From contig JARFYF010000112.1 of the NCBI GenBank assembly GCA_030265395.1, forward strand, positions 69,139,837 to 69,203,836: a stretch of 64,000 bases of DNA, read 5' to 3'. The notes under the pieces were generated by a model. The model was not told the origin of the DNA. It did no database searches and saw only the letters and a program-made list of their open reading frames with translations. Shown piece by piece: positions 35,917 to 54,600 of the stretch. Position 1 is the stretch's first letter. Every line of letters begins with the position of its first letter. This DNA is from Rhina ancylostomus. Its lineage: Eukaryota. The position numbers were made by a program, and so were the translations under genes.

Positions 35917-36586
35917 CTTAAGCTTGTCATATCTATCACTCAGTGAGGAAACCTGATGCTCCCGGTGACGTCCTACAAGTTTGCATAAGGCACAGATCAG
36001 CTGATCATCCGTGACACAGTACATATTCACCTTTTCATCTTCATGCTCCAGACACATTAGGCCACGCAGGTGGGAGTCCGGGGTTGGCTCAATCAGCCGG
36101 TGGCCAGTAAATGGTTTTTTGTTAGGATGGGTGGCCCTGAGGCATCGGTCACAGTAGGAGACCTCACAGGTCACGCAGGTCTTGACTGCATCCCGTGGTG
36201 GCTCTTGCTCACAGAACTGGCACTGGACCCTCTCTGAGGCCATNNNNNNNNNNGGTGATGGGATCCCTGTAGGGTCGTTCACGGCGGCATTCACTGGGGG
36301 AATTGGGTCCACTCAGTGAAGCTTTCTGAAAGCGATCAATAATGTTCTGCAGAGTTATATTCCTCTTCAACCCCTCCAAGCCACGATGGTTCAGAGATAT
36401 AACATACCGGCAAGTTGGACACTGGAAGGCAGCAATTGATTTGATCGTCTCGTTGGAGGTACAGTGAGAGACGAGAATTCGATGGGCGCAGTTGAAACAC
36501 AGACTATGGGCACACGGCAAAAGCAGAGGGTCTTCAAATAACTCCAGACAAATTGGGCAGGTTAATTCAGATTCAAGTGTTTCCAT
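35917..36586 (-). CDS. MID2: First coding exon of Midline-family TRIM E3 ubiquitin ligase (RING, B-box1, B-box2); most likely MID2/TRIM1, MID1 paralog not excluded
   Basis: ORFs 36209..36601 and 35887..36312 join across the 10-N gap (36244-36253) to give [30 protein letters not shown]...CPTC (RING), [14 protein letters not shown]...H (B-box1), CLEH..YC..D..IC..C....H..H (B-box2), ending DKLK. ATG at 36586 in aagATGg context; donor AAG|GTACAG at 35917/35916. 670 nt minus 10 N = 660 nt = 220 codons. [17 protein letters not shown] and DRCLRATH are MID2-type residues as I recall the human proteins. Confidence 0.9.
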
Positions 36587-36642
36587 CTTCAGGCAAAGCA
36601 ATCTTGCATTATCAGTGTTACCCAGGGAAGCTGGTCAGCTAC
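36587..36642 (-). other. MID2: 56-nt 5' leader portion of the first coding exon of the MID gene
   Basis: Minus strand reads pyrimidine tract tctctctcacAG|gtagctgaccagcttccc...gcctgaagATG; acceptor AG at 36644-36643. A 56-nt leader in this exon matches the MID1/MID2 exon architecture as I recall it. Confidence 0.8.
36589..36609 (-). CDS. Short upstream ORF MQDCFA* within the leader (C-terminal part of a possibly longer spliced uORF)
   Basis: ATG CAA GAT TGC TTT GCC TGA directly visible, followed by AG then the main ATG. Translation is not demonstrated. Confidence 0.5.
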
Positions 36643-37244
36643 CTGTGAGAGAGAGTTAGAAAAACAATGTGAGCTGATTGTATACTCTTTAAAGCATGCC
36701 AGAAATGTTTCCCTTGAATCCAACCATGATATTAAATAAAGAGAAAGATTAGTGTTACAGAGAAAATAAATGTAATCTTAAATCCATGGAATCTTAAATT
36801 TACAGTGCAGGAGACCATTTGGCTGCTGTCTCCATGCTGCCTTAAAGTGAGTGTAGTCCTACTTTGATTTCTTCATCCCTGGCTAGATAAGTTTTATGTG
36901 TTTTATATAGTTCTAATGTGATCTCCCTGCTCTTTCTTTATTGACCATGTCTCATGTAGATGCATTCCAAATGATTTCTTAACCACCTTTCATGCATGTT
37001 CTACCATCTCAGGGGATCTGGGGACTCAGTCCAAGACTCTCTATAACTCTACACCTCTCAGTATCTTGCCATTTATCATACATTCTCTTGCTTTGTTTGT
37101 CATCCCCAAATGCATTACTTTGTACTACTCTGCAATACATTTCATTTGCTACTTTTTTACCAACCAACCAGTCTGGTAATACCTTACTGCAGCCTTCAAC
37201 TTTCTTTCTCACTAATGGGTTTGGAACCACATGCAATGTAGTTT

Positions 37245-37338
37245 TTAATCTTAATTTATTATAATAAATTAATAATAAATCTTAATTAATAATAAATTAT
37301 TAATAATAAAAACAATATTATAATAATAAAATTAATAC
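37245..37338. repeat. AT-rich low-complexity (TAA-like) tract
   Basis: ataataaattaataataaatcttaattaataataaatt... Confidence 0.85.
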
Positions 37339-38369
37339 TGTTAATCGTAGCCCACATGCTTAAGTTTACATCATTAATACATGGGACAAAAGATGAGGAA
37401 CTTAATAGCTCTTCAAAACCCTGCTGTATATTGCCTTGTGGTCACTATATGATGACTATCCCTTAACAATATTGCTTTGACTGTCCTTGTTTGTGTCACT
37501 CTAAGTGCTGCTCACCATTGATGTTAGGCTGACTGGCCTGAAGTTATTCTACCTATCAGATTCTTGCTGAAAAATGCAAGTGTACAAATGATTTGAAAAG
37601 GACATCAGGTTGGCTTATAATATTTTCCCTGGTCTCCTACCAAATGTTTTGTCTGTTTTCAGAGGGAATAGCAACTTGTCCAGCATCCACTGCAAAAGGA
37701 TTCACCATTTTTAAAAGTGAAGCTGGTGAGCACCTGACAAAATGTGTATATTAAATCTTGTTCCGCTTTTGTGGAATAAGGCAACTTATTGTTATAAAAA
37801 TTGTAAAGTGTATCTGGTGAGAAACAGATTTGAATTTATATCACAATTTTTACTTTCCCACCGAAAGCATTTTCCAAGCAATGAAGAGTAGTCATTCTAG
37901 TAGGAGACTTAGTTGCCAGATTGAACAGAGCATGCTCCGATAGTCTGTTCTTTGCAATGTTGAATGAGTGTGGGATGAGGTTCTGTGTTCAAAGACTTAA
38001 TTCTATAGTGAAAGATACAGGTATGTAGGAATCTCTTCAGCATATTAAGGCAGTTCAGCTAAGAGTTTCCAAATAGACAGGAGTACAGAAAATTCTTCTC
38101 AGGAGCAAATATTGACTTTTCAAAATAAACACAGAATTTCCAAAAAGACACCATTATGAAGAGCTTTAAAAATCTTTTATATCATTCTACCTTGCTCCTG
38201 TCCATTCTTTCTCAAATAGTTCTGTGCTTGCAACACTAATTATAGTGTGACATGTTCAAATACTTAAGTTTCTTCGAGGACCATCTCTGAACATTTGTAC
38301 AGCAACCCATCTATCTCAATTAGAACATTTAGTGATCTGCAGTGCTGTAAAATCTACATCATAATAAGA

Positions 38370-38930
38370 TGAGAAATGGCTGAGGGAACAACTCTCAGAC
38401 TCTATCCTGTCCGTCCTCTCAATATCTTGCATATCTCAATGAGATCACCTTCATTCCTCTAAACTGCTGTGAATGAAAGGCAAAACCCTCATCCCAGGGA
38501 TCAACCCAGTGAATCTATGCCACACTGTCTCTAAGATTGCTCAAGTGTAAAGACTCAATCTGCACACAGTACTCTAGGTGTGATATAACCAAAGCCTTCA
38601 AATTCATTAAGACTTACTTGTGTTTTTACTCTAACAGGTTTGCAACAAAAGTACACCATTTGCCTTAATTGTTTACTGTGCCCGTATGTTTATTTTCCAC
38701 ACCCTCTCTATACATCATATTTTGTCGCTTGCTCACTGTTTATTTTGTGCTATTCTTCCCCCAAAGTGAACAAGCTCATATTTCTCCACATTATTTTCCA
38801 TCTGTACTTTCTTACTCACTCTTTAAGCATTTGCAAACCACATGAATACTTCTCAATGCTCACTTTCCCAACTAGCTTTGTAACAACAGAAACAAATTTG
38901 GATAGTCTACCTTTTTAACTAAGTTATTAA
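38370..38930 (-). mobile_element. Decayed CR1 fragment
   Basis: Reverse complement of gagatcacct and ctgcacacagtactctagg (RGDLIE, LEYCVQ-like). Confidence 0.5.
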
Positions 38931-38959
38931 TATAAATTGTGTAGAGCTGACATGCTTTG

Positions 38960-39215
38960 TAGATGACAGCCCCACGTTTACTGGACTTGTCTGATGCCAA
39001 ATTGTTATTACTTCTTCCTTCTTATGAAATCCCTTGGGATCAAGGATGAATTGCTTCCACCCTGTTTTTGTGGGTTCAGAGGTGGCCAATGTGGGAACCT
39101 CAGACTTTCCGTGGATGGGGCGGGAGGTGCCTGATTGAGTGGGTGGATGAATAGTTTGTGAGGCGGAGCATTCCTTACACTGCTTACACAGGGTTTCTGT
39201 GTGCATCTGATATAC
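38960..39215 (-). mobile_element. RTE LINE 3' tail fragment
   Basis: Similar to the 3' ends at 7440-7600 and 43970-44150. Confidence 0.5.
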
Positions 39216-41874
39216 AGATTTAAGGTTAGCAATACCGTCTCAAATACTCCTTTTCTACTTTTCATGTTCATAAGTCTGAGACAAATCATTATATTCCAAT
39301 ATCGAATAGCACAGGCTACCAGGTCAAATTGAAGCATTAAGTTAAAATTGTAAACCTGCTTATGATTGCAAAAGCACATAACTTATTTATTTAATGAACA
39401 ACATGAACAGGAACCATTCTGAAGAAAGGTAATTCATCTGAAATACTTTGTTTTTCTCTCCATAGATGATGCCCAACCCAAATATTTCCAGCTCTTCTTG
39501 TTCTCATTTCAAATATTCAGTAGTTGTTTTGCTTTTCCAGTGTCAGAGTTATGTGTTTCAATGGGGATGTTGACAGGTGCTCAAAGGCCATCCAATGTGC
39601 CTTTGGGTTACAAACTGGAAACTGCTGAAGCACTCTTCAGCAATCACTACTACAACAACTTCTAAACTAATGACAGGTCAGGACAGAAACAGGCATGGTC
39701 TGATTCTCATGCTTCCTTGGTAAAATAACCTGTCAGCACTCAGTGCCAGGCATGAATAATAGCCACTTGAGAAAAGAACAAAGACAATCAGTACTGTAGA
39801 ACAGTATCCCAGTAAGGAGGAAGTTTCTTTTGAAGAGAGGTACAAATTAAATGTACAAAATTAAAGGACACCACCACCAACTTATTCAATTTAAATGAGC
39901 GGGGATTGAGTGTCCATGTTGACACATTTTCATTAATTCCATTCATCCTTCNNNNNNNNNNTCAAGAATTCCCTAATAAAAATACAAAATGCACTAGAAA
40001 GACAAACGGAATTAGAAATGGGGGAGCATTTACAGAAAACCAAATGAGCAGGAACAAAGATATCACAGGAAAAGACAAAATAGCCAGAAAATCTTAATAG
40101 ATCATATTTTAATGAGACACAAATCGACATCTCCATCAAGAATGAACTTTCAAATAAATTGATTCACATGTCCAATGTGAGCACAAGTAAATAATTCAAG
40201 ATTATAGTTAGCGTATGTTGAAAGACATGTAAAGGTAGTTTCAAATTTAGCAGGTTGATGGTTATCTTTTGTGTTTGAATGCCTCTGGCCATGGGTCAGA
40301 ATTATAGGTCTGAAACCAAGGACATTTCTTGGTAATGAAAAATATAATGGCAACCAGATGGTTTAGTGAATAAGGAACACCCTTCTTTCATCTTCAAAGC
40401 TTTGATCCAGTCCAGGAGCTAAGCCTTGAAAGGCCACTTTGCTGACAGCTGCACAAGTCACTTGTGAAGTGCATTTGATCCATTATCAAGGCTGGTCCCA
40501 TTATACAGCACCCTATAATTCAACACCATTTCCATTGAATTGCCAATTTTATCATCCAAGTCTTGAGAAACACTGATATAGCAAATATTATTGTGGCATT
40601 GTGCAAAGTACCATTCTGATACTGGGATTAAGGCATGTTTCAGTCTGATGCAGGTGCATCTGACTTGCAAAACAATAGTGCTTGTAGGATAATACTCTGC
40701 AACTAAGCCACACCATAGTGTCATGGGAATGCTTGATAAGATAAAATGTGAGGGAGCATCACTGTGCATTCAATCAAAGCTACACCAGATATAGGAGTGC
40801 TCAAAAAAATGGGTCTATGAATCTGTCGAGTTACAATGATGATAGACTCAGAGACTCTAATATCAAAAAGCTAAAGCCAATAACTCTCCCACACATTTCA
40901 ATGCTTTAAGCTAGTGAACAGCACAACACTGACCAAAATCACACAAAAATGGGAGAATTGGTGTGCTTACAGACTCTCTGCACTTAGCTACTTACTTTAA
41001 AGAGTGCAGTTTACAGGGAAACCTCATGTCCCCTGCACTTCACTAATGTAAAACTGCCTTAAATTCCTTCTGGTTGCAAGTCAGTCCATACTATGAGATA
41101 ATCTTCTGTATTCTTTGGAGAAATAGTTTATGAAAGAAAAAAATGCTCTCTAAATTCAAGATTATGCATCTCCTATATTGGGAACATTCCTGTGAGGTTT
41201 TATACATCAAATTTTACTTAGCCTCAAAACAGATTTGAAGATTGATCAAAATTAAAACAGAAAAGTTTCCAGCAGTCAACCATGAGGATGATGACTTTAT
41301 CTCTCCTCTTGGGTATGACACATGTAGTTGAAGCTTAGTTAGCTCATGTGTGAAATGCTCCTCAGTGTCAACTAGTTTTCATCAGCAATCAGACCTGACC
41401 TCAAATGGGATCGGAAATTAGCTCATGCCTATGCACACAGATGCCTGCCGTTTTGCAGAGAGAGGAGAAAGCAGCATTTATTCCATGACAGTGACTTAAG
41501 AACTAAAGCTCAAGAAGAAGTGAAACCTATATTATTCTGCTTAAGAATAAATTGGAAGTATTGGTATTGGTTTATTATTGTCACTCATACCAATTAAGAG
41601 GGTAACGATGGCTTGATCGCTTCAGTCCCCGTTGTTTCAACTTTATGCATCAGAATCAAATCTAGATGAGGCTGATGTAAAATAATTTCCTTTTGCTCCA
41701 TGTGGTGAGGTGAATTTGAGCNNNNNNNNNNNNNNNNNNNNNNNNNNNNNNNNNNNNNNNNNNNNNNNNNNNNNNNNNNNNNNNNNNNNNNNNNNNNNNN
41801 NNNNNNNNNNNNNNNNNNNNNTTTAGCAATATTTCTAGAATATAAGCAATCGCAACCTTATTAATTGATATGAA

Positions 41875-41962
41875 AACAGAAAATACTGGGAAAACTCAAC
41901 AGGTTACACAGCATCTATGGAAAGAAAAACAGTTAAAATTCAGATCTGAGATCCATCATCAT
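41875..41962 (-). repeat. Penelope-like terminus copy (minus)
   Basis: aacagaaaatactggg..aactcaacagg...gcatctatggaaag. Confidence 0.55.
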
Positions 41963-42579
41963 TATTTATTGATAGTTCTGCTCATTTAGGTTCTAAGGAA
42001 TATTATGGGGAATGGAATACACTGGAGTCAGGGTACATTGATGGTCCCATTCCTTCACCAAGGTTAAAACTAAACTGGGAGCATTTACTGGATGTGGTGT
42101 GGAAGAAGCTTTACTTCACAATAACTATATTTAACCTAGAAACCAGTTAATAGTACCAATGAGTGGTACAATGGTAACTAATATCATTCCCCAGCTTGGA
42201 GGTCTCTCCTCTTAAAATCATATTTCTTTTCAAGGCCACATTTTGTATGGCCGTAGATTGCATCAGACTGCTGATACACTCACTACTTTAAACAGCGTGG
42301 AATCTACAAACCCAATTCCAGGTTATCAGGAAAGCAACCAATAATGAAATAGGGAACTCAGGAGAAACATCTTTACTCCAATTGGTAAGAACGCAGAACT
42401 CTTCCCTGGGGAGTGCTTTGGGCGAACAGTGTAGGTGCATTGAAGGGGAGGCTAGTTAAGCATTGTGGGGAGAAAGGAATGGAGAATTACGTGAATAGAG
42501 ATGTGAGGATCCTTGAGTGATGCATTCATGTCTGCATGGGCTGGTTCCATCAAATGAACTGCATGTGCTAGGCAGTGCT

Positions 42580-42826
42580 TGTCATGGTTCTGAGTTCTGG
42601 CCCTCAATTTGGCTCCTTTAATGCCTTGTTGTCCAGCNNNNNNNNNNNNNNNNNNNNNNNNNNNNNNNNNNNNNNNNNNNNNNNNNNNNNNNNNNNNNNN
42701 NNNNNNNNNNNNNNNNNNNNNNNNNNNNNNNNNNNNNTGTGTTTGTCCTGAGGAAGTATCCTGACTTCAGTCTTGTATCAGTGTGCTGCATTTGGGTTCT
42801 CTGTGAGTTTGCTCAACATTGTGACA
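42580..42826 (+). mobile_element. Solo LTR (Gypsy-like) with 5-bp target-site duplication
   Basis: Begins TGTCA (42580) and ends TGACA (42826); GTGCT on both flanks (42575-42579 and 42827-42831); the middle is a 100-N gap. Confidence 0.75.
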
Positions 42827-42939
42827 GTGCTGCTTTCATTCACAATAGAACATCAAACCAATCCTCATCCAGTATATTTTAGAAGGAGTCTTGATTTTTT
42901 TTTGTTAAAACAAAATGCATCACTTCACACTGTTTCTCA

Positions 42940-44150
42940 AAACCAGATCCCAGTCATCAGTGCTTACACTCCAACCCTGTAAACTATACATGAGGCCAAG
43001 TATGATTTTTATTCCAACCTTGAGAAAATCCTAGCCTGAATCCCAGAGGGAGATAAACTGATCCTCCTAGGCATTTCAATGCCAGAGTCAGAAAAGACAG
43101 AATCCTTTGGCAAGGAGGGATTGGGGAAAACTAACTCTAGTGGATTTCTTCTCCTGACTAAATGCCTGGAACACAACCTTGTCATAAACAACAGCCTATT
43201 TCATCACAGAGACAAATACTGGAACTCTTGGCATCACTCCTTGATCCTGGCACCAGTACCTAAAAGATAATATCATTATTCAAGTGAGGGACTGGAAGAC
43301 CTGCATCTGACAGGTGCTGGTGACTGCTGCACTGACCACAGATAATCCACTCTATTACCTTCATTGACCTGACCCTAAAACATCAGTAGCAACAGAAATG
43401 CTACCACAAGAACTTGAATGTCAAAGGTCTAAAAGACCTCATAAAGAAAATTGATCATGGTCAGGGCCTACTCGGTAACCTGACAACTCCCAACCAACAG
43501 TAGCCGCAGAGTATCAACTGTGTCTAGTCTATACCAAAGTCCAAAATGAATGGCACCTGTGAACAGGCTATTGACTTCTCTGTCAGAAAACGCTAATGAT
43601 CTAGAACATGAAACACCTACATCAGGCATCCCAAAGGGCTGGAGATGAGCAATCAATACAGTCTCTGCAAAAGCCTTCAAATCTATCTGCAGGGTTAATG
43701 AGCCAACATCAGGCTGAGGACCTAATTTTCCTCAGCCAGCTCCACTGGGCAAATCACATTTGCAAGCCCAACACCAGACTCCTAAAATGGACAATCTACT
43801 CCAAACTGTGTCATGAAGAAAAGGGAGAAATCACTTCAAAGATATCCTCATAGACCCCTAAAAACAAGTAGTATCCTTGTTTCTGGGGATCATCGGTTGT
43901 GGCCACTCAAAGTGGAAATGAAGTATCGAGGATGGCATTGAGTATGTCAATGTTTTTTATCAGTTGCACACAGAAACCCAGCATAGTCAACAGAAGGAGC
44001 ACACCACCTTCCATACTACCCATCCACCTGTCTGGTCATGTACCGCCTGCCCCATCTGTGGAAAAGCCTGAGGGTCCCATGCTGGCTTCATTAATCACTT
44101 CAGAACCCAGAGAACTGCAGTGGAAGCACATTGTCCAAGGAACTACTTAA
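42940..44150 (+). mobile_element. Internally deleted RTE-clade LINE (APE endonuclease plus C-terminal region)
   Basis: VISAYTPTL, DKLILLG.FNAR, GKEGLGKTNSSGFLLLTKCLEHNLVINNSLF (APE domain); QLHWANHI..PNTRLLK..IYSKL (C-terminus). Confidence 0.8.
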
Positions 44151-44749
44151 GAAATGGGAAGATGTAACTTGTGTCTTGCATCCACCATCGAGGTCAGTTC
44201 CCACTAGCATCCTTATTTCTGCAACTGGCATGTGTTTTTGCATGTTAGAGTACATTCTAATATTTCAGAAATATACTTAGCAAATTAGTCAATGATCTCT
44301 TATTTACAGCAACTGTGATAACCTTCCTTCTCCTACCTAATCTGGGAAAATTGGACACAAACCAAAAATACTAATCTGAGGAGGCTTGGAGTTCTCTTTC
44401 TATTTTCAAAATAGTTGCCTTTTCTGTGTTTTACAAAGAATGCTGTGAATTATATGTGTCATGCCAGTAACCAAAAAAAGAGAGATGCTTTGATGGAAGG
44501 AAAAGAGCCCAGAGAGTTACTAACTCATCATGGCCTAAATTACGTGGTCCAGAAAGTTGTTGGCAAGGCCTTTCTAAATGACTGGAGTTCTTATTTTCTG
44601 TCTCTACCTGAAACAGTTGGCTCTTTTCATGATTCCTTTTGCAAAAATGTCACCTATTCTTTGGTAATTTGCTCTATGACCTTCTTTCAAATGGGGTAAT
44701 GTAGTAAGCTATTTGTACCCATCAACTTAACAGCCAGTGAAAATAAAGA

Positions 44750-44850
44750 AAGTTCTAATGAAGGGTCTTCAACCTGAAATGTTAACCCTGTTTCTCTTAT
44801 CATAGATGTGGCCTCACCTGCTGAGTATTTCCAGCATTTTCTGTTTTTAA
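44750..44850 (+). repeat. Penelope-like terminus copy
   Basis: agttctaatgaagggtcttcaacctgaaatgttaac...cctgctgagtatttccagcattttctg. Confidence 0.7.
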
Positions 44851-47800
44851 CTTAATAGCCAGTTCTCCTTTGTCACTTATGTTCACAAATGCAGGTATTT
44901 CAGCTGCCATCACGAGGTAGTTTTTGATTGCCATGATCCTGGATGGATTTGAGTGACTAGATGCTGATGCCTTGGTGTGGTTTAACCAACAATGCAAAGA
45001 ACAATAGTTAAATCTGGATCATTTAGGATCCATAAACTTAGTCTTATTTGGTCAGAACATTGACCAGCTCACCCAGGTTGGGAGGAGCTCTTTTGGACAC
45101 TTAATTGACTTTATTGCAAGCCACAACATCATTCAAGAGACATCATTAATTTACATGCAAAAGGAAGCATTTGGCATAGGCAGTTTGAACAGAAGGTGCG
45201 AGCAACACAGATTGAAACCACTTCATATGCCATGCAAATATTGAGTTCAGGATATTTGGGTGGATACAAACCAAATAAGAAAATACAATCCAATATCTTG
45301 TTTCCTTGACTAAGCATCAACCAGTGAAAACCCATGATAATTTCAAGTTAATCCCTGATTTAACAGGTATATAAATGTAAGTGGACAGACTATGCCAAAT
45401 GGAAGAGTAATTTGTGAATGTGTATTAAAAAATATCAGGAGAGATGATGGTGTTTTTCTGCTAACTCACTGTCCTTTCATATGGGATTTAGGTTCTAATC
45501 CAGCTGCAGCTGAATAAATACAAATGTGTTAACTGTGAGAATCCTTCATGAAATGAATTTTAGAATTTTCCCAGTTCAGTTTTGTGGGCATGCTTCCTAA
45601 TTTTGAACAATTAACACAATGTTGTCTATTTCAATCACTGGGTCATCCATCTAACTGAAAGGCTACAAGGTTTATCTCAGGTAGGAAAATGGAAATGTCA
45701 CTTATAAAATAGGGAATATTAACCTGTTTCTAATTCATGATGCCCTGCTCTGACCTGCAGACAAAAGGTTATAAATAAGGCAGCAGAGCAGAAAGAGGAG
45801 GGGATATATTAATGCAATTTGACCATCTCTATAGCTCAGGTTTTGGAAAAACTGTCACTCTTAACCACATTTAGGTTTTGATGCAAGTCAGCATGTCCTT
45901 GCATGACTGAAATCTTTATACTTAGAATCTATCCATTGCTAACAGCTTTTTTTGCTGTCTTCTCATTTTCTCGTGTTGAGTATTACTGCACATTTTCATT
46001 TTGGTTCTCAATTTTCTGCATCCTACAGCACCAAAAATATATTTTGCTATTACTTTGCAAAATCAGGTTAAGGAAATATGGGGACTGCCATATTTCATTT
46101 ATCCACAAGTACATGCCCAGAAATATACTCCTGCATGTTCAGAATGATCCAGCAGTTAATTCCTATTTAAATCTCTAACTTGCACATATCCTATCTGTAA
46201 TGTCTATTTAAAATTGCACTATTTTTTCAATGGAACACTTTTAGTCCATCAGTCATTCCTTTTTTTTCTATACTTTGGCATGCTTTACTTTTTATGGTTT
46301 ATTCCATGTGCTTTCTCTTTCTGTATTCCATGTCTATCCTCCTCATTGACATGATTCTTTTCTAGTGGTTTTATCACTCTCATCCCAGGCTTTCCTTTGC
46401 TCCAATTCATCACGTTTACTTTTTCTGCATCTTTCCTACTCATTAGTTCTCCTTTTCTCTATCTGTTCCTCTCTCTGTATTCCATGTCTTCTTCAATCTC
46501 AAAAGCTACCATGAAAATCTCAGGGCTCATCTCTTCACATATTCTATGTCCCTTCTGCTCTCCACTTTGTCTCGACAGTCTTTTTCAACATTGCTCCTTC
46601 CATCTTATTTTTATTTTCCTCCAATTTTGTCACAGATTCATTGTTTTTAAACAACTTAAGTTCAAGATTGTCATTGACAACAAAATATCTCAGTAGGCCG
46701 AAAAAAAAGCTTGCAGTGAGGACTGATGAAGTACTGGTGGAATTGGTTGAATGGTTGGTCATATGGCATTTGGAGAAGTGAAAGAATTCGCAAGAAGGGG
46801 TATCAGTGGACTAAAACTGAGTGGATGCTCTGCATCAATGATGGAACAATGGGAGGGGTTCAGTTAAGAATGTGCGCAGAGCTGAAAACTAGAAAAGTAA
46901 AGGAGAGTCAAAGCTATGAACAGGTTTGTGGACAATAATGAGGAATCTTGAATTCTCCATGTTGGTTGCCAAGGATGGGACAATACAGATAACTGGACTC
47001 AGCAAGAGTTAAAATGAGGATGTAGACTTCTGGCACCAACTGCTCTTTATGTAGGGGTGGATCTCAAGAGCCTAGCAAAACTAGCACTGAACTAATTTAG
47101 GTGAGGATGTGTTTTTGTCTGGCTGCAACAGCAGTGGTAGGAAACTGCAAAACATGGAAGCAGTGGGTGTTGATATTGTTTAGCATTAGGAATTTGAAGC
47201 TTAGTGTCAGATTCAGTTTGAGTGAATTGGGGGGAGAAAGTTGGAATCAGGAGCCAGACTGTGGATGCTTGGTAGGAAATGAACAGAATAACAAGCTGAA
47301 GAAGGCTGTTGTCAGATAAGCAGAGAGACAACACAGAGATGGTTTACAAATCAATGATAGTGCCAGAGAAATAGATCTGACTGCTGTCAGCATAAATGTG
47401 AAAGCTGACCCATGTCAAAGCAGAATGTGCAGAAAGAGAGGAAGATGGGAACTTGGCATGGAGCCTTTGTTTCACATTTAGAAATTATTTCCTCTGAAAT
47501 ACAAGAGCTCCCATTAATGCCACAACATTTTTTCGTTATGTCATAATGGCTGGATAGTTTGTTTTTCCGGCATAGTTAACAACCTGCTCAAAACAGAACT
47601 GCATTTAACTGGACAATGAGAACATTTTATAGTCAGTGCATGATAAGAATAAAGGACAACAGAATTACATGCAGATTCTTAAACCATACCACTGTATGAA
47701 GCCAGCTAAGATGACAATCAAAAAGATTATGAGATTAAAAATAAAGCAGTACTTCCGTCTTAATTTAACTTAATGATCCTCCTACTTGTATCCTGACTGG

Positions 47801-49959
47801 AGACTGACCAATGTCTTGATAGATAAAAGGACAAATGACAAAGCCAGTCAGTATGTGGTGCTCAGACATTGGAAGAGGTGCAGTGGGGGTTGAGGGTGAA
47901 GAAGATAATGTGAAAGCAGCAAACCTTCCTTCTGTGGCTTGGATTTGTTTGCCAGTTGGACGCTGGGAAATACTCACCAGAGACCTCCCCCGGATCCTAC
48001 TTCCATTGTTTGTAATGTAATATATGCAAGAATGCCATACAGAGCCTCCTGTGCCAGCAGTGAACCTACTCCTAGTATGCCGCCTCTGTGTTAAAAGGGA
48101 GTTGATATTTTTAATCATTTTTTAAACAGATTGCCAGAATGCTCATCTTTCTTCAGTGTGATTTCTTAAGCCTGGCTGCACTAATTCTTTAGAAAAATTG
48201 AGTGCTCAGTCAGAATGGTGCTAAATAATTGGTTTATTGTGGNNNNNNNNNNNNNNNNNNNNNNNNNNNNNNNNNNNNNNNNNNNNNNNNNNNNNNNNNN
48301 NNNNNNNNNNNNNNNNNNNNNNNNNNNNNNNNCTTATTAAGAAGCCACATCACCATATTGTCGACAGAATGAAGATACAAGCCTAAAGAAAGTGGATGTG
48401 GAGGGACATGGATGACTACCAGAGAGTCTGGAGGTAGGAGACAAACATGACATAGGTATCATGGTGGAGGATGGGAGGGTTGGAGATGGGTGCTGAGAGC
48501 AAATAACCAGCTTGGAGATCTCATACAAGTTTTCAATTCCTGGGTACGCTTAATCCAAAAAAAAAGCAAGTACAACATAAGAGGAATTGAAAACATGGTT
48601 GAGAACTAGCAAAGCAGAACTTAAAAAGAGATAAAGCTTCATGGAGTCCACTCCATGACAAGACCAACTATAACTAGTCACATTTGCAGATGATTGTTAC
48701 AATGTACCACATCAGTTCTCAAACCCTTAGGTATTTCACATATAAGCAAAATATTCACACATTAAACAGTGCTAAAGCCAAAAGGAACACAACATTCAAA
48801 GCATACTTATATTTCCCTATCATAAAGAGCTAACCAACAGACAAAGGTTCTGAGGAATTCAGAAAGAAATGAGTCATCTTCTAGAATACTTTGATGAACA
48901 ACATTGAAGGGGACAATTGTGGATGATGTGTAGGACCACGCAGGAGCAAAATTCATACTTACGGACATGCATTCTAAAGCAAGTTTGCAATCACTTTTAC
49001 ATGCCGTTAATAGCACCAAAGAAACATTAGCACAAGGCCTATATTAGCATCTATTTATCTGGTTTGACTCTGGAAGTAACATTGAGAGCATGGGCTAAAA
49101 TGTATTCATGTTCCATCAACAATAACTCACTAATTTTCCAGCAATTAATTTGCAGTCATTCCCAAAACACAAAGGAGCTTCATGTAATTTCATAGCAATA
49201 CTCTCTTTCTCCATTAGGCAATCCTAATCTAGTATTGTGAAGTTGAAACACAGTTCTTCTTTCTGTCAGTTGATTGAATCACTTGACAGATGTAATAGTG
49301 GTACTAAAATAAACTGAGGGCTGGAAATTTTACTCTGACCTTATACGTGAATCAACAAAACCATACCGTCTATAACCTTTATATTTAGAGCAGTTTTCAA
49401 CATCTTATCTATGTTCTGAGCATGTATGTTGATTTTCATTGACATTTGGCTTGAAGAAAACATTTTCATATATCATGTAATAGAATCTTACCCCTCAATT
49501 TCAACCTTAACTAAAATCACATTCTACCAACACAGCCTCCCCACTGTCATTTTTAATTGAAGAAATTGATATGGTGACAATTTCTATCCAAGCACAATAA
49601 TGCCTTTATTGGCATTGATAGCATCATCCCCAAACAACTTCACCTCTGTTCCATTGTCTCCTCAGACTGGTGAACAATGCCATGGAGAATATATAGGAAT
49701 TACTTTTAAAACAATTGCAGTCTTAAACATTCCCATCATTGTCAAACAAGCTGGAGTCCAGATGACTGAAAACTGCCTGATGTTATTGTCTTAATTCTTG
49801 TGATATCATTTGAGCTCCTTAATTACAACTGGCAATTATAAAGTTTTGGCCACACTAAATTAGCATATAGTTCCAAAAATTTCATCTGGTTCAATATCAA
49901 GCATCAAATATAAAACTTAGCACTTTTGATTCCTTCCTCCAATCCCTGAGTCAATTTTG

Positions 49960-50210
49960 AGTCATTGAGTTGTACAGCATAGAAACACAGACCGTTGCAC
50001 CCACCTGTACTGATCCCATTTACCCCCTTTAGGTCCATATACTTGTATGTATGCCTTGGCAATTCAAGTGCTTGTCTAGATATTTCATAAATGCTGTGAG
50101 AGTACCTGCCTTTGTTGCCTCATCAGGAAGTGCATTCCAGGTTCCAACCACTCTCTATATGAAAAAAACTCCCCCTCAGATCCCCTCTAAACCTCCTACC
50201 TCTCACCTTA
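49960..50210 (-). mobile_element. CR1 3' end fragment
   Basis: Reverse complement of FRGDLRGSFF..RVVGTWNALP plus 3' UTR. Confidence 0.65.
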
Positions 50211-50812
50211 ATATGGCAGTTGCTCCAGCTGAGGTCATCTTGCACAGGAGAGATACAGAATTGAACTTGGAGGCTTCTGGCCCACATAGCTAAGAAACTT
50301 CAAGAACCGAGACAAGGGCGAAATTCACAGCCACAGCATTTAACATTCTCCTACTAGGCATTTACATTCTCCAAAGGTATATCTGGCTGCAGAATTTTCT
50401 GTAGTTCAGCTACATGTCTCAATAATCATTTAGTAATCAGCTCTGCTCATGTTGCAGTGTGATTGCTGTGATGCAGAGTCTCTACTTCCAACATCTACTT
50501 CAGCCATCCATGTAACCCAGATGGAACATGCATCAATTGTTTGCCCTGCCCTTGGCTTGGGTTGAATTAACTAACTGTAACATTATCAGCAGGAGGGGAA
50601 AGAGGGAACCCTGATCCTCATTAATAGCCAGTGACACCTGCTGTGGCTGCCAGCGAAGATTGGATGGACTGGGCCACAATGCTTTCTGGGTGGTATTAGT
50701 CTGTTGCAACCCTTTGGTTAGCCTTGCATGAACATGGGTGTGGAGCACTGTGGGCATGGAAAAGTATTTGGAAAAATAGTGCTCCCAGCAAAAGATATGT
50801 GTATGTAGGGAG

Positions 50813-50814
<2 letters not shown>

Positions 50815-50859
<45 letters not shown>

Positions 50860-50868
50860 GTGGGGGGG
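50815..50868 (+). repeat. (GT)n microsatellite followed by poly-G
   Basis: Directly visible. Confidence 0.95.
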
Positions 50869-51004
50869 AAGAGAATNNNNNNNNNNNNNNNNNNNNNNNN
50901 NNNNNNNNNNNNNNNNNNNNNNNNNNNNNNNNNNNNNNNNNNNNNNNNNNCCCCCCCCCCGGGGCGGCGGGGAAGAGAATGCCAATAAGGCAATTAATGA
51001 AAGT

Positions 51005-51075
51005 AGCAAATGCTGGAGATACTCAGCAGCCGGGTAGCATTTGCAGAGAGAGAAACAGCTAACGTTAAAGTCGAT
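51005..51075 (-). repeat. Penelope-like terminus copy (minus)
   Basis: aaatgctggagatactcagcag..gggtagcatttgcagagagagaaacagctaacgtt. Confidence 0.6.
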
Positions 51076-51752
51076 GTGTTTTTTCTGGACCTCCCTAAGT
51101 TCAGTCCAGCTTCATTCTTGTTATGACGTTTCCTGCGGTGTCTTGTGACACTTTGCCGGCCAGTGTATGTTCTGCATTTAATCCATATAAACAGATTAAT
51201 GTATTTCCTGTCAAAAATGTCAGGAACGCCTATTATTTTCAATGGGAATATAAAACTGGCTTCAAGATCGAAATGGTGGGAAAAGTTAAACTGAGTTGAG
51301 TCTTGCTGTAACATTCCACATAGATAGGTAAAAAAACCAAAAATATCAGTTACCTTGAGCATCATAGCCTGAATAAATCCAAGCAGCCCGCATGACTTTG
51401 AAAAGAGGGCGAGGCAAATATCTACGACTGCTATCAACAGAGGGAATTGGGAGGGGGAAGGGAATGGTAAGAGGATTTTAAAAAAACTGCGTGTATCCAG
51501 ATNNNNNNNNNNNNNNNNNNNNNNNNNNNNNNNNNNNNNNNNNNNNNNNNNNNNNNNNNNNNNNNNNNNNNNNNNNNNNNNNNNNNNNNNNNNNNNNNNN
51601 NNNNNNNNNNNNNNNNNNNNNNNNNNNNNNNNNNNNNNNNNNNNNNNNNNNNNNNNNNNNNNNNNNNNNNNNNNNNNNNNNNNNNNNNNNNTAACATGTT
51701 TCCTAAAAGCTCGCACTTTCTTATAATTAATTCTTGTGACCACCCCCTTCCC

Positions 51753-51753
<1 letters not shown>

Positions 51754-51785
<32 letters not shown>
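51754..51785 (+). repeat. (CA)n microsatellite
   Basis: Directly visible. Confidence 0.95.
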
Positions 51786-51788
<3 letters not shown>

Positions 51789-52399
51789 TTTGCACCGTGG
51801 CCCGTGTCAAGTAGCACTGATATTTACAGGGCACGGAGCAAGCTACGTTCACATTCTGAAGACTCTGGACCTTGTCAATGAGCCACTGATACCCAACACA
51901 TCAGCTAATCACAATTAGCCAAGCAGAATAATTTCTATTATTAACTGACTGCAGTCATATTTTCCCATTGAGCTCCATTGTGCGTAGCTTAAGCAACTAT
52001 TGAGAAATAATGCGGGCGGATGGGGGTGGGGATCACGCCTAACTTCAAGGAGCCATAAAATGTATCTCAACCGGCACACTAATCTCGTGAGAATATTTAC
52101 AAAAGTATGACACATAACCGTAAGTTTCTAAAGCAAAAGTAGGATCAAAGATATGGTTATTTACCCTTGCTGGCGTCTGTCCCTCTCTCTTTCTCTTCGG
52201 TTCACAGTTTACACCTGCACACTGAGCCAGAAAATCATTTACTTAAATAATCTGTCAAACTATGATTGTAAAAATAAACTGAAAACACAGGCATAGCAAG
52301 AAAGCAAGCAGCGTGTGAATCTATCTGGAGACCAAGGTACATCTGAGAGCATGATAGATCCTGGCTGCACTTTTTACACTGAACTTGAGCTCCTCTGCC

Positions 52400-54200
52400 C
52401 AGTCGCAACAATTTCTAATCCCTCTCACGGTCTCTCTCCCCCACCCTCCTTGATTTTTCTCTTACCCCTCGTAAAAGGAGGCTGATGCACACATAGAACC
52501 ATAACCTGGTACTGGAGCCGACCCTGGTGGGAGGGGTTACTTACCAGCTGACTCCGGTATGCATCCGACTGCCCTGTCATCTTGGAGAAGTGNNNNNNNN
52601 NNACAAAAAGTGGGAAAGAAAAAGGCAGAAGAACGTGGAAAGAAGCTGGGAGCAGCAAGACGGCCGCTCCGAGCCCTTACAGCAGCACACTGAGAGCTGG
52701 AATCGGTATATCCAACTTCTGAAACGACACAATTGCAGGAAAGCAACTCCTCCCACTTTACCTCGCTGACACAAAGGGAGCCGAGCGAGCTGCGAGGTTC
52801 AGCGGCGCACTGGAACCCTGCTGAGAAGGGCTATTTCCTTTATCCTCTCTCATGTACATTTAGTGGGAAAAGCCACAATAAACCACTTGTTAGTTACTGA
52901 GACCACCGCCTCCTACAGCTAATAGGATTTATCTCCTGACCACTAGTTTGGGAATACTGAAGCAGTCCCGTTCCCCAGCCCGCGTTTGTAATTTCCATGA
53001 TTTAAAAGCCAGCAACGATTTCTGACACTATTCCACTCTTGCAGTGCTGTGGATTTTAGTTGTTGTTTACATATTGCAGAGGATGAATCGCAAGGGGGAT
53101 GCTCGATAGCTAAAATAGTAGACGTAACCAAGGGCTCATTTGATGGTTACTTTTGAGTTACCTATTCTCCAGTGGAATATTACAATTTCCTTATCAATGC
53201 CTAATGACATTTGCTGCCGAATGCATATGGTTGGGCTGTAAGAGCAAAAACACCTCCATTATTGAAGAGTTAGTTGGTACTCATGCATGAACTTAACCCA
53301 GTAAGTTTATTAGAAGGGCCGACTCAATTGTACTCCGAAGAGTTCGCATCTCCAGGGGAGGGGAATCTAATGAGTTAAAGTAAAACACGGTAAATCATAA
53401 GTTCCAGATAATACGATAAAAAACCCTACAATGTGTGCCAGAAACAAGTCCGCTGAGAAGACTGGAGGGGGCCCAACTATTTTTATAGCCAATACTGTTC
53501 AATATTGTTATAGAGACTGTTGTCCAGAAAATGAACCCACTTGGACTTGGGTTTTATATACAGTTTGTGCATAAAAACTATTTTGTACAAATTTTATCAC
53601 GGTAGTGATCACTGCCACGTCGATCAGCGGCCATCGGGAAATTGGCCTGGGCGCTTCCATGCGCCATTCACTGGAGCGCATTCGAATTTGCCTGATTTCG
53701 CTTGCGCATCTCAGCACGTTATCCGGCGCAGGGCAGTCATTTCTACATTTGCAATCAGAAATTAGCTGTTAAAAGCGTGACATCAACAAAATAAGAACAA
53801 ATCTCGCAGCAGACAGAAAAAGGGCATGATTTAAAGGGCCAATGTGTTGCTGTTGTTCTGTCGATGAATTATTGCCTGCCTCTGCCAGTCTCGGTTTTCA
53901 TTTCTCGGCCATCATTGCTGAGTGGCCCCATTACCTCCTGCAGCATATAAACGCGCTGAAATCTTCATCGGTGCGATGAGCTTGTGGCATTTGGCGTACT
54001 TGTGGTCCGGGATTTGAGATGGGAAGATGGCCATTCACACACAGGACATGTGTTCCCACCTTCACTGTGATATTCCTCACCTCCATTGCAGCGTTTCTGA
54101 AACTGCTCCACGACCCCCATGTAGAGGTTCTTTAAGGCTCTGACTCACATTTCGTGTTTGAGAGCGGCAGTAACGCAACAGCTGGCAATTTCCTGATTTT
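52400..54200. promoter_or_regulatory. CpG-enriched, repeat-poor region; probable MID promoter / CpG island
   Basis: CG dinucleotides are visibly dense (gagccgagcgagctgcgagg, cagcggcgcac, cgtcgatcagcggccatcggg, ccggcgcagg) against a CpG-depleted background; CCAAT motifs near 53489 and 53839. Judged by eye, not computed. Confidence 0.6.
52545..52850 (-). other. Candidate upstream (first) exon of the MID gene; its 5' start (high-coordinate end) is uncertain
   Basis: Consensus donor CTG|GTAAGT on the minus strand (plus-strand acttac at 52539-52544), within a CpG-rich zone ~16 kb upstream of the coding exon. Contains aagATG at 52580. A second possible donor GAG|GTAAAG lies at 52762/52761. Confidence 0.55.
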
Positions 54201-54489
54201 TGTTTCCAGGGATCCTGACCAGCTGCTGGTACTAGATCCAGCATCCATTTAATGGACCAAAAACAAATGAGTGAGTCCCTATTTTCATGCAGCATGACCC
54301 TATTTCTCCCAGTGTTGGTTCTGAGACAAATGCTGGCTGGAACAGAAGAAAATTGCTTTAGTTTAGTTTAATTTGGCATCAAGATTGGCGCATAGTGAAC
54401 CAAAGGCTGTTCCTGTGCTGTACTGTTCTATGTTCTAAAACTTCTTGCTGTTCTTCAAATAGTGCCATGGGATTATTCTGGCTTCTGCC

Positions 54490-54600
54490 TTCTTCCTTTC
54501 CAGTCCTGATGAAGGATCTTGACCCGAAACGGTGACTGTTTATTTCTCTCCATTGATGCTGCCTGACCTGCGGAGTTCCTCCAGCATTTTGTGTGTGTGT
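54490..54600 (+). mobile_element. Penelope-like terminal repeat containing a minimal type-I hammerhead ribozyme motif (probably inactivated)
   Basis: CAGTC-CTGATGA-aGGatcttgaCCc-GAAAC-ggt-GACTG at 54501-54538, followed by the family tail gatgctgcctgacctgc.gagttcctccagcattt. Confidence 0.7.

Follow-up and report, generated by a model that had tools for sequence, protein, structure and literature searches.

The 64,000-nucleotide (nt) stretch of Rhina ancylostomus contig JARFYF010000112.1 analyzed here (the window) carries on its minus strand the first coding exon of the Midline gene MID2, also called TRIM1, preceded by a short upstream open reading frame (uORF) that is spliced from two exons and ends almost on the main start codon. 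Such a uORF is already described and annotated for human MID1, and our results extend this known element to MID2 instead of adding a new one; its presence in MID2, its age and the reading of its leader in two frames were not found in the literature searched, where subscription journals are thinly covered. We hold it somewhat more probable than the contrary that the MID2 copy is mainly a sequence-independent repressive uORF, dependent on promoter choice and predicted to lower MID2 output.

The gene was identified by protein comparisons. The window protein shares 97% identity with MID2 of Amblyraja over 111 residues and 88–89% with chondrichthyan MID1, whereas a second locus of the same genome (L002, on contig C74) shares 98–100% with chondrichthyan MID1. 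Since L002 is MID1-like and the window protein is nearest to Amblyraja MID2, the window gene is, by sequence similarity, the MID2 of a batoid-like fish and not MID1, and its uORF lies in the paralogous copy. The original prediction, drawn from the letters of the window, had set it beside the human MID1 leader, and that comparison is one between paralogues.

Joining the donor at 52545 to the acceptor at 36642, 15.9 kb apart, gives an open reading frame (ORF) of 29 codons followed by TGA-AG and the main ATG, just as the original prediction had read it. The stop occupies 36591–36589, which leaves 2 nt to the main ATG (first letter 36586), and the acceptor is preceded by a pyrimidine tract and CAG. 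An internal ATG at 36609 is indeed in frame whatever the first exon, and its place varies, being codon 12 of the second-exon part in the window, codon 11 in human MID1 and codon 10 in teleost MID2. A join on paper is by itself not beyond chance: 24 of the 50 upstream GTRAG sites in the window, about half of the donor-like sites, give an open in-frame ATG within 39 codons. Transcript contigs single out the 52545–36642 junction.

Seven public runs were examined, all from related organisms of other species, with an RNA status that was guessed and an identity to the window of about 96–99% over the first coding exon. The junction, for which confirmation in RNA had been proposed, is seen in contigs of two organisms, in two of the seven runs (X17 and X13). 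In X17, a single 795-nt contig maps with its positions 4–319 on 52857–52542 and 320–795 on 36639–36154; this breakpoint equals the 52545–36642 junction offset by three letters, GTA opening both the intron and the exon. The joint is absent from the 15 joint rows shown (99 further rows were not displayed), and the junction was taken from the contig mapping records. In X13, a mix of the exons ending at 52545 (exon A) and 52165 (exon B) accounts for 29 of the 30 letters of a two-contig loose end at 36643, vs. 24 of 30 for exon A alone. X1 and X16 carry first exons other than exon A: exon B is found in X16, and a distal first exon in X1 as well as in X13. X2 and X11 do not cover the exon and X8 is uninformative. 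Three alternative first exons feed one 56-nt leader, and no use of another acceptor was seen among the contigs examined. Exon B has no ATG in the uORF frame within its open stretch. The distal exon ends with a main-frame ATG, whose 4-codon ORF is closed by the TGA of leader codon 2. In the uORF frame, it offers a TTG located 11 codons ahead of the junction (X13 has a stop in this frame), and it carries further tiny out-of-frame ORFs.

The same arrangement is retained across both Midline paralogues. In the MID1 leader of this genome, the acceptor also lies at exactly -56, the frame is open and the end is again TGA-AG-ATG; 43 of its 56 bases and 10 of its 17 residues agree with the window leader. 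Three further leaders, L011 (teleost-like MID1), L012 (tetrapod-like MID1) and L013 (teleost-like MID2), whose paralogue and clade labels were assigned here from their proteins, align without gaps and keep the -56 acceptor, the open frame and the stop. The leader of L014, a mid1-like teleost gene, is 68 nt long, with 9 nt inserted in the uORF and 3 nt between its stop and the ATG; these insertions keep the phase of both frames, and the open uORF frame is retained. In total, an open frame ending in TGA stands upstream of the orthologous main ORF in all six DNA leaders (2 nt before the ATG in five, 5 nt in L014) and in human, thus across distant taxa, and unnamed ORFs supply additional MID1 examples. 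Tryptophan at the stop in P0202, P0204 and P0205 is apparently due to TGA being read as Trp throughout and does not represent stop losses. P0206–P0208 look like repeat-protein noise, and the distant TRIMs L015–L019 were left out. L011–L014 are records of the metagenome collection; their vertebrate Midline genes represent host DNA or animal DNA under a wrong label.

Because both paralogues keep the -56 acceptor, the open frame and the stop, the uORF likely predates the MID1/MID2 duplication. This duplication falls in early vertebrate evolution. No relative was found in scans of genome contigs and viral contigs. A third genomic match to the leader end, L056 (G000:C50:13627224), consists of a 21-nt exact match plus ATGG with a CAG also at -56; it overlaps a low-copy repeat fragment and is likely due to chance. 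Its flanks align no better than shuffles, and without a RING frame or flank similarity it was ruled out as a Midline paralogue.

That the ORF would be incidental, untranslated or neutral in this lineage, its frame staying open by chance in a cartilaginous-fish genome that evolves slowly, seems to us very improbable. An open 17-codon frame has an 18–20% chance in simulation, paper joins are as common as stated above, and the identity of the X13 leader to the window (0/56 differences vs. 19/423 in the coding sequence, CDS) is not significant alone (p 0.15). On the contrary, the two paralogous leaders are far more alike (43/56) than the adjacent intron (10/40) or CDS third positions (40/80), and the human homologue is translated.

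This translation is documented by GENCODE 2023 (Frankish et al.; PMC9825462), whose Figure 1 presents the MID1 uORFs as three replicated ribosome profiling (Ribo-seq) ORFs with different first exons and a shared, PhyloCSF-positive second-exon part. One of them, cXriboseqorf5, is reported as intact in orthologues across tetrapods and "potentially conserved across vertebrates," and was annotated in 2022–23 as the protein-coding gene ENSG00000291314. The original prediction, which knew of no description as a conserved peptide, is overtaken on this point, while the Ribo-seq and PhyloCSF checks that it proposed are answered for human MID1 by the same paper. The human peptide, frame and stop position that it gave agree with the supplement of PMC10032668, where the cXriboseqorf5 peptide has 12 + 17 residues, and with P0205. 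In that supplement, the internal-ATG human ORF of 7 codons has 423 P-sites, 71% of them in frame. By analogy, the uORF is likely translated in this MID2.

Whether the peptide itself is selected was evaluated on the five gap-free leaders (window MID2, MID1 of this genome, L011, L012 and L013), L014 being left out of codon counts for its indels. The rival proposal is that of a functional micropeptide or a sequence-dependent stalling peptide, i.e. a conserved peptide uORF (CPuORF), with the C-terminal 17 residues selected in both paralogues; we consider it unlikely, with a chance that is still appreciable. In its favour, the five leaders and human share Q4, W7, F16 and the stop without exception, and 11 of 17 residues are identical between the window MID2 and human MID1. 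The PhyloCSF-positive second-exon part and the gene annotation of cXriboseqorf5 speak in the same sense, as do its PhyloCSF score of 9.27 in mammals (PMC10032668) and the missense constraint on the three MID1 ORFs in gnomAD exomes, with 7 variants observed vs. 21 expected and an upper bound of 0.626 (PMC11909976). Similarly, only 1 of 17 exon residues varies among four Logan ORFs, vs. 20 of 48 intron-frame residues, and back-inference from gene models in the main frame yields 21 single-step variants of MID1, 12 of which are silent when read as the uORF, vs. a fraction of 0.34 expected (p ~0.025). These models are predictions, mutually related and visible only when the main frame is open; multi-step changes were left out, as were P0077, P0166 and P0170–P0184 (shifted or non-homologous N-termini) and proteins with fewer than 13 upstream residues.

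On the contrary, codon-level statistics do not carry the signature of a protein. Variable columns by codon position number 12/12/9 in the leader vs. 18/6/65 in the CDS, so that the third-position enrichment set beforehand as a test is not seen. For the uORF, main and third frames of the leader, the ratio pN/pS (non-synonymous to synonymous differences per site) comes to 0.83, 0.88 and 1.19, respectively, vs. 0.09 for the CDS, and a Ka/Ks well below 1, by which CPuORFs are recognized, is not observed among the five leaders. On their tree, 10 of 41 changes are synonymous (0.24, vs. a neutral 0.24) and, on the assumption of free silent sites, an omega ≤0.3 is rejected (p 0.0004); leader silent sites are themselves constrained, which blunts this test. 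MID1 branches show 3 synonymous to 13 non-synonymous changes, and the 4 of 10 teleost MID2 variants that are silent by back-inference are not significant. Among the gene models, 3 of 17 distinct MID2 leaders are unable to encode W7 and 3 of 15 MID1 leaders F16, whereas the stop is compatible with all 32 distinct leaders. PhyloCSF falls to -0.84 in primates for cXriboseqorf5 and is -56.9 for cXriboseqorf6, no mass spectrometry study detects the former, and the 7-mer is undetected by parallel reaction monitoring (PRM) (supplement of PMC10032668). First-exon residues are not conserved either. Peptide-level selection is thus not clearly demonstrated by these comparisons, and the constraint lies largely on nucleotides. 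Of the ancient, conserved uORF or micropeptide initially proposed, a real, spliced and very old uORF stands, and selection on its peptide is not supported by the five leaders, whose synonymous fraction is neutral.

A second function might hold the 56 bases, with the uORF as a passenger: either an N-terminal extension in the main frame (reached through a first exon of phase 1, an acceptor further downstream or a near-cognate NTG, at main codon 6) or signals for splicing and start context. We regard this as improbable. In its favour, the main frame is as conserved as the uORF frame by pN/pS, and its MID1 branches count 5 synonymous to 9 non-synonymous changes vs. the 3 to 13 given above. Mammalian MID2 gene models (P0157 of Muntiacus and P0158, a Sus cluster of 675 members) read MG plus all 18 leader codons in frame, and marsupial models (P0167–9) start at main codon 6, a codon that reads CTG or GTG, with G next, in the other DNA leaders; the TGG codon of W7, which does not vary, doubles as NTG-G in the main frame. 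The indels of L014 are multiples of three, including the 3 nt between stop and ATG. Nevertheless, TGA closes the main frame at codon 2 in two of the five leaders (window and L012), the leader is unchanged in the three relatives with fully listed differences (X13, X16 and X17, with 19, 6, and 19 differences in the coding part), and the contigs give no sign of another acceptor. The main-frame synonymous fraction (0.29) equals the neutral one (0.28), and the extended models are predictions subject to ascertainment bias. The human MID2 reference isoform is presumably N-terminally extended too. Pig MID2 was cloned as a 715-amino acid CDS (PMC10526110), which also speaks against the extension. RNA structure was rejected as a cause of the constraint: the consensus (-4.9 kcal/mol) has an unfavourable covariation term and double changes in 2 of 23 pairs, and single leaders fold no better than shuffles (z 0.8–1.4).

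The extended mammalian models have the same 18 codons upstream of METLESEL, and their PAS start and LK end match the main-frame reading of the window; they differ in using the main frame, closed by TGA in the window, and in that W7 of the uORF frame cannot be encoded in some of them. Tentatively, and as a possibility more than an expectation, the 56-nt leader could be an ancestral, pre-duplication dual-frame switch between the uORF frame and an N-terminal extension of the RING ligase, chosen by the phase of the first exon; MID1 and cartilaginous-fish MID2 would have kept the uORF, whereas mammalian MID2 would have moved to the extension, with decay of the uORF peptide. If so, the new protein-coding gene of GENCODE would be one face of an overlapping-frame element.

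The mainly sequence-independent repressive uORF that we favour would operate as follows. Ribosomes starting at the upstream AUG, which has an A at -3, would terminate almost on the main AUG after 29 codons. The uORF would capture part of the scanning subunits, and the 2-nt spacing would leave little room to reload initiator tRNA; with reinitiation mostly absent, MID2 would be made mainly by leaky scanning. Standard scanning rules underlie this predicted repression by a uORF near a strong AUG. Promoter choice would set MID2 translation, lowered from transcripts with the 52545 first exon, because an in-frame AUG is brought by exon A and lacking in exon B, and the distal exon contributes only a TTG and short out-of-frame ORFs. 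An earlier paper (PMC2248598) suggested that translation levels are set by upstream AUGs lying in first exons of MID1. Selection would act mainly on the layout (an in-frame start, absence of early stops and a stop at -5 to -3) and on a few residues, overlaid on nucleotide-level or main-frame constraint, and a free-acting micropeptide would not be required. First-exon parts differ between isoforms and species and in-exon start codons fall at different codons by lineage, as expected if having a uORF outweighs its sequence.

Several points weigh against this repressive role. Published translation data concern human and rodent MID1, and the transcript runs are those of relatives. The table of 7,264 Ribo-seq ORFs of PMC10032668 has no MID2 row. 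A sequence-independent uORF leaves unexplained why pS in the leader (0.35) is half that of the CDS (0.69). An open frame with a kept stop arises in 2.6% of neutral simulations, which speaks for the uORF, but with the CTGAAG end fixed, a constraint that may reflect start context, the frame is open in all five leaders in 18%. Finally, a short stop-start distance may favour reinitiation if factors stay bound (review, PMC10275272); distance effects therefore go both ways, and the sign of the effect on MID2 is one that we infer.

The features are collected in Table 1. The CpG-enriched stretch around the first exons looks promoter-like from its composition.

Table 1. Features of the MID2 locus and its uORF (window positions unless another locus is given).
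Feature	Position	Strand	Remarks
First coding exon of MID2/TRIM1, RING and B-boxes	35917..36586	-	main ATG at 36586, strong context aagATGg
56-nt leader of first coding exon	36587..36642	-	used with every first exon seen; MID1 and MID2 leaders homologous
Second-exon part of uORF, 17 codons and TGA (36591-36589)	36589..36642	-	
Internal in-frame ATG, 6-codon uORF with any first exon	36589..36609	-	
First-exon part of uORF, ATG and 11 codons	52545..52580	-	context aagATGa, A at -3; donor GTAAGT next
Second, out-of-frame ATG, 7-codon ORF	52545..52564	-	weak context (C at -3); TAG just past junction
Alternative first exon A, minimum transcribed extent	52545..52857	-	X17 contig
3' end of alternative first exon B	52165..52195	-	X16 and X13 loose ends; donor GTAAAT after 52165
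Distal MID2 first exon	L024:1498-1530 (G000:C112, ~69276120)		~100 kb upstream of acceptor; X1 and X13
CpG-enriched stretch around first exons	52000..54000	none	observed/expected 0.52-0.94; intron mostly <0.3

Exon A holds a 10-N gap at 52593–52602, which the X17 contig crosses without length change, and no second copy of this exon was found in the genome. Ten N at 36244–36253 inside the MID2 exon are a false gap that could make the gene appear frameshifted; RNA-like contigs from three runs omit exactly these 10 letters, restoring the frame. A tblastn with the full MID2 protein found no further MID2 exon in the ~36 kb downstream (window 1–35916), and the next intron is therefore long. At L002:1300–1546 (G000:C74, ~65685610–65685856), the MID1 coding exon is interrupted at a CTGCAG, 80 codons in, by an unrelated, bacterial-looking open frame of 61% GC and about 100 N, beyond which MID1 resumes; no Pfam match at E 0.01 was found for this insert, which is probably a wrong gap-fill or a contaminant chimera in the assembly. 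Short interspersed repeat copies lie at 54430–54600, 44750–44850 and 41900 in the window and are very abundant in RNA-like contigs.

A MID1 first exon resembling that of human or of the window was sought in the 200 kb upstream of MID1 in this genome (5% N), and none was convincing. The best candidate, 82 kb upstream, combines a CTG start with a weak donor and scores 33 vs. 31 for the next among 99,249 windows; a blastn search with the three first exons of MID2 returned a single weak match (E 0.04), and tblastn of the predicted extensions nothing under E 0.09.

By this work, an annotated human microprotein gene, ENSG00000291314, located inside the Opitz-syndrome gene MID1, is likely dated to before the MID1/MID2 duplication. 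It illustrates deep conservation without a clean protein-coding signature, since both frames and the silent sites are constrained, and matters for the interpretation of the human ORF and of variants in MID1/MID2 leaders.

Among known systems, the animal CPuORFs identified by ESUCA (PMC7530721, whose main text names neither MID1 nor MID2) are similarly short ORFs kept upstream of an orthologous main ORF over wide taxa, with the most constant residues near the C-terminus; they differ from the Midline uORF, which has no excess of synonymous change in the leaders compared. The closest relatives are the human MID1 ORFs cXriboseqorf5/6/7. The window element differs from them in belonging to a batoid paralogue, MID2, in being known from sequence and transcript contigs, and in having its internal ATG at another codon. 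The first exon has the same 12 codons in length, but these are not demonstrably homologous to those of cXriboseqorf5 (4/12 identical, BLOSUM62 score 8, not significant). Otherwise, the second-exon part is homologous, the acceptor lies at -56 and the stop 2 nt before the main AUG, and in both genes several first exons give different N-termini. With cXriboseqorf5, the window uORF moreover shares the 12 + 17 codon split and an AUG supplied by a spliced in-frame first exon, the window junction being that seen in related species.

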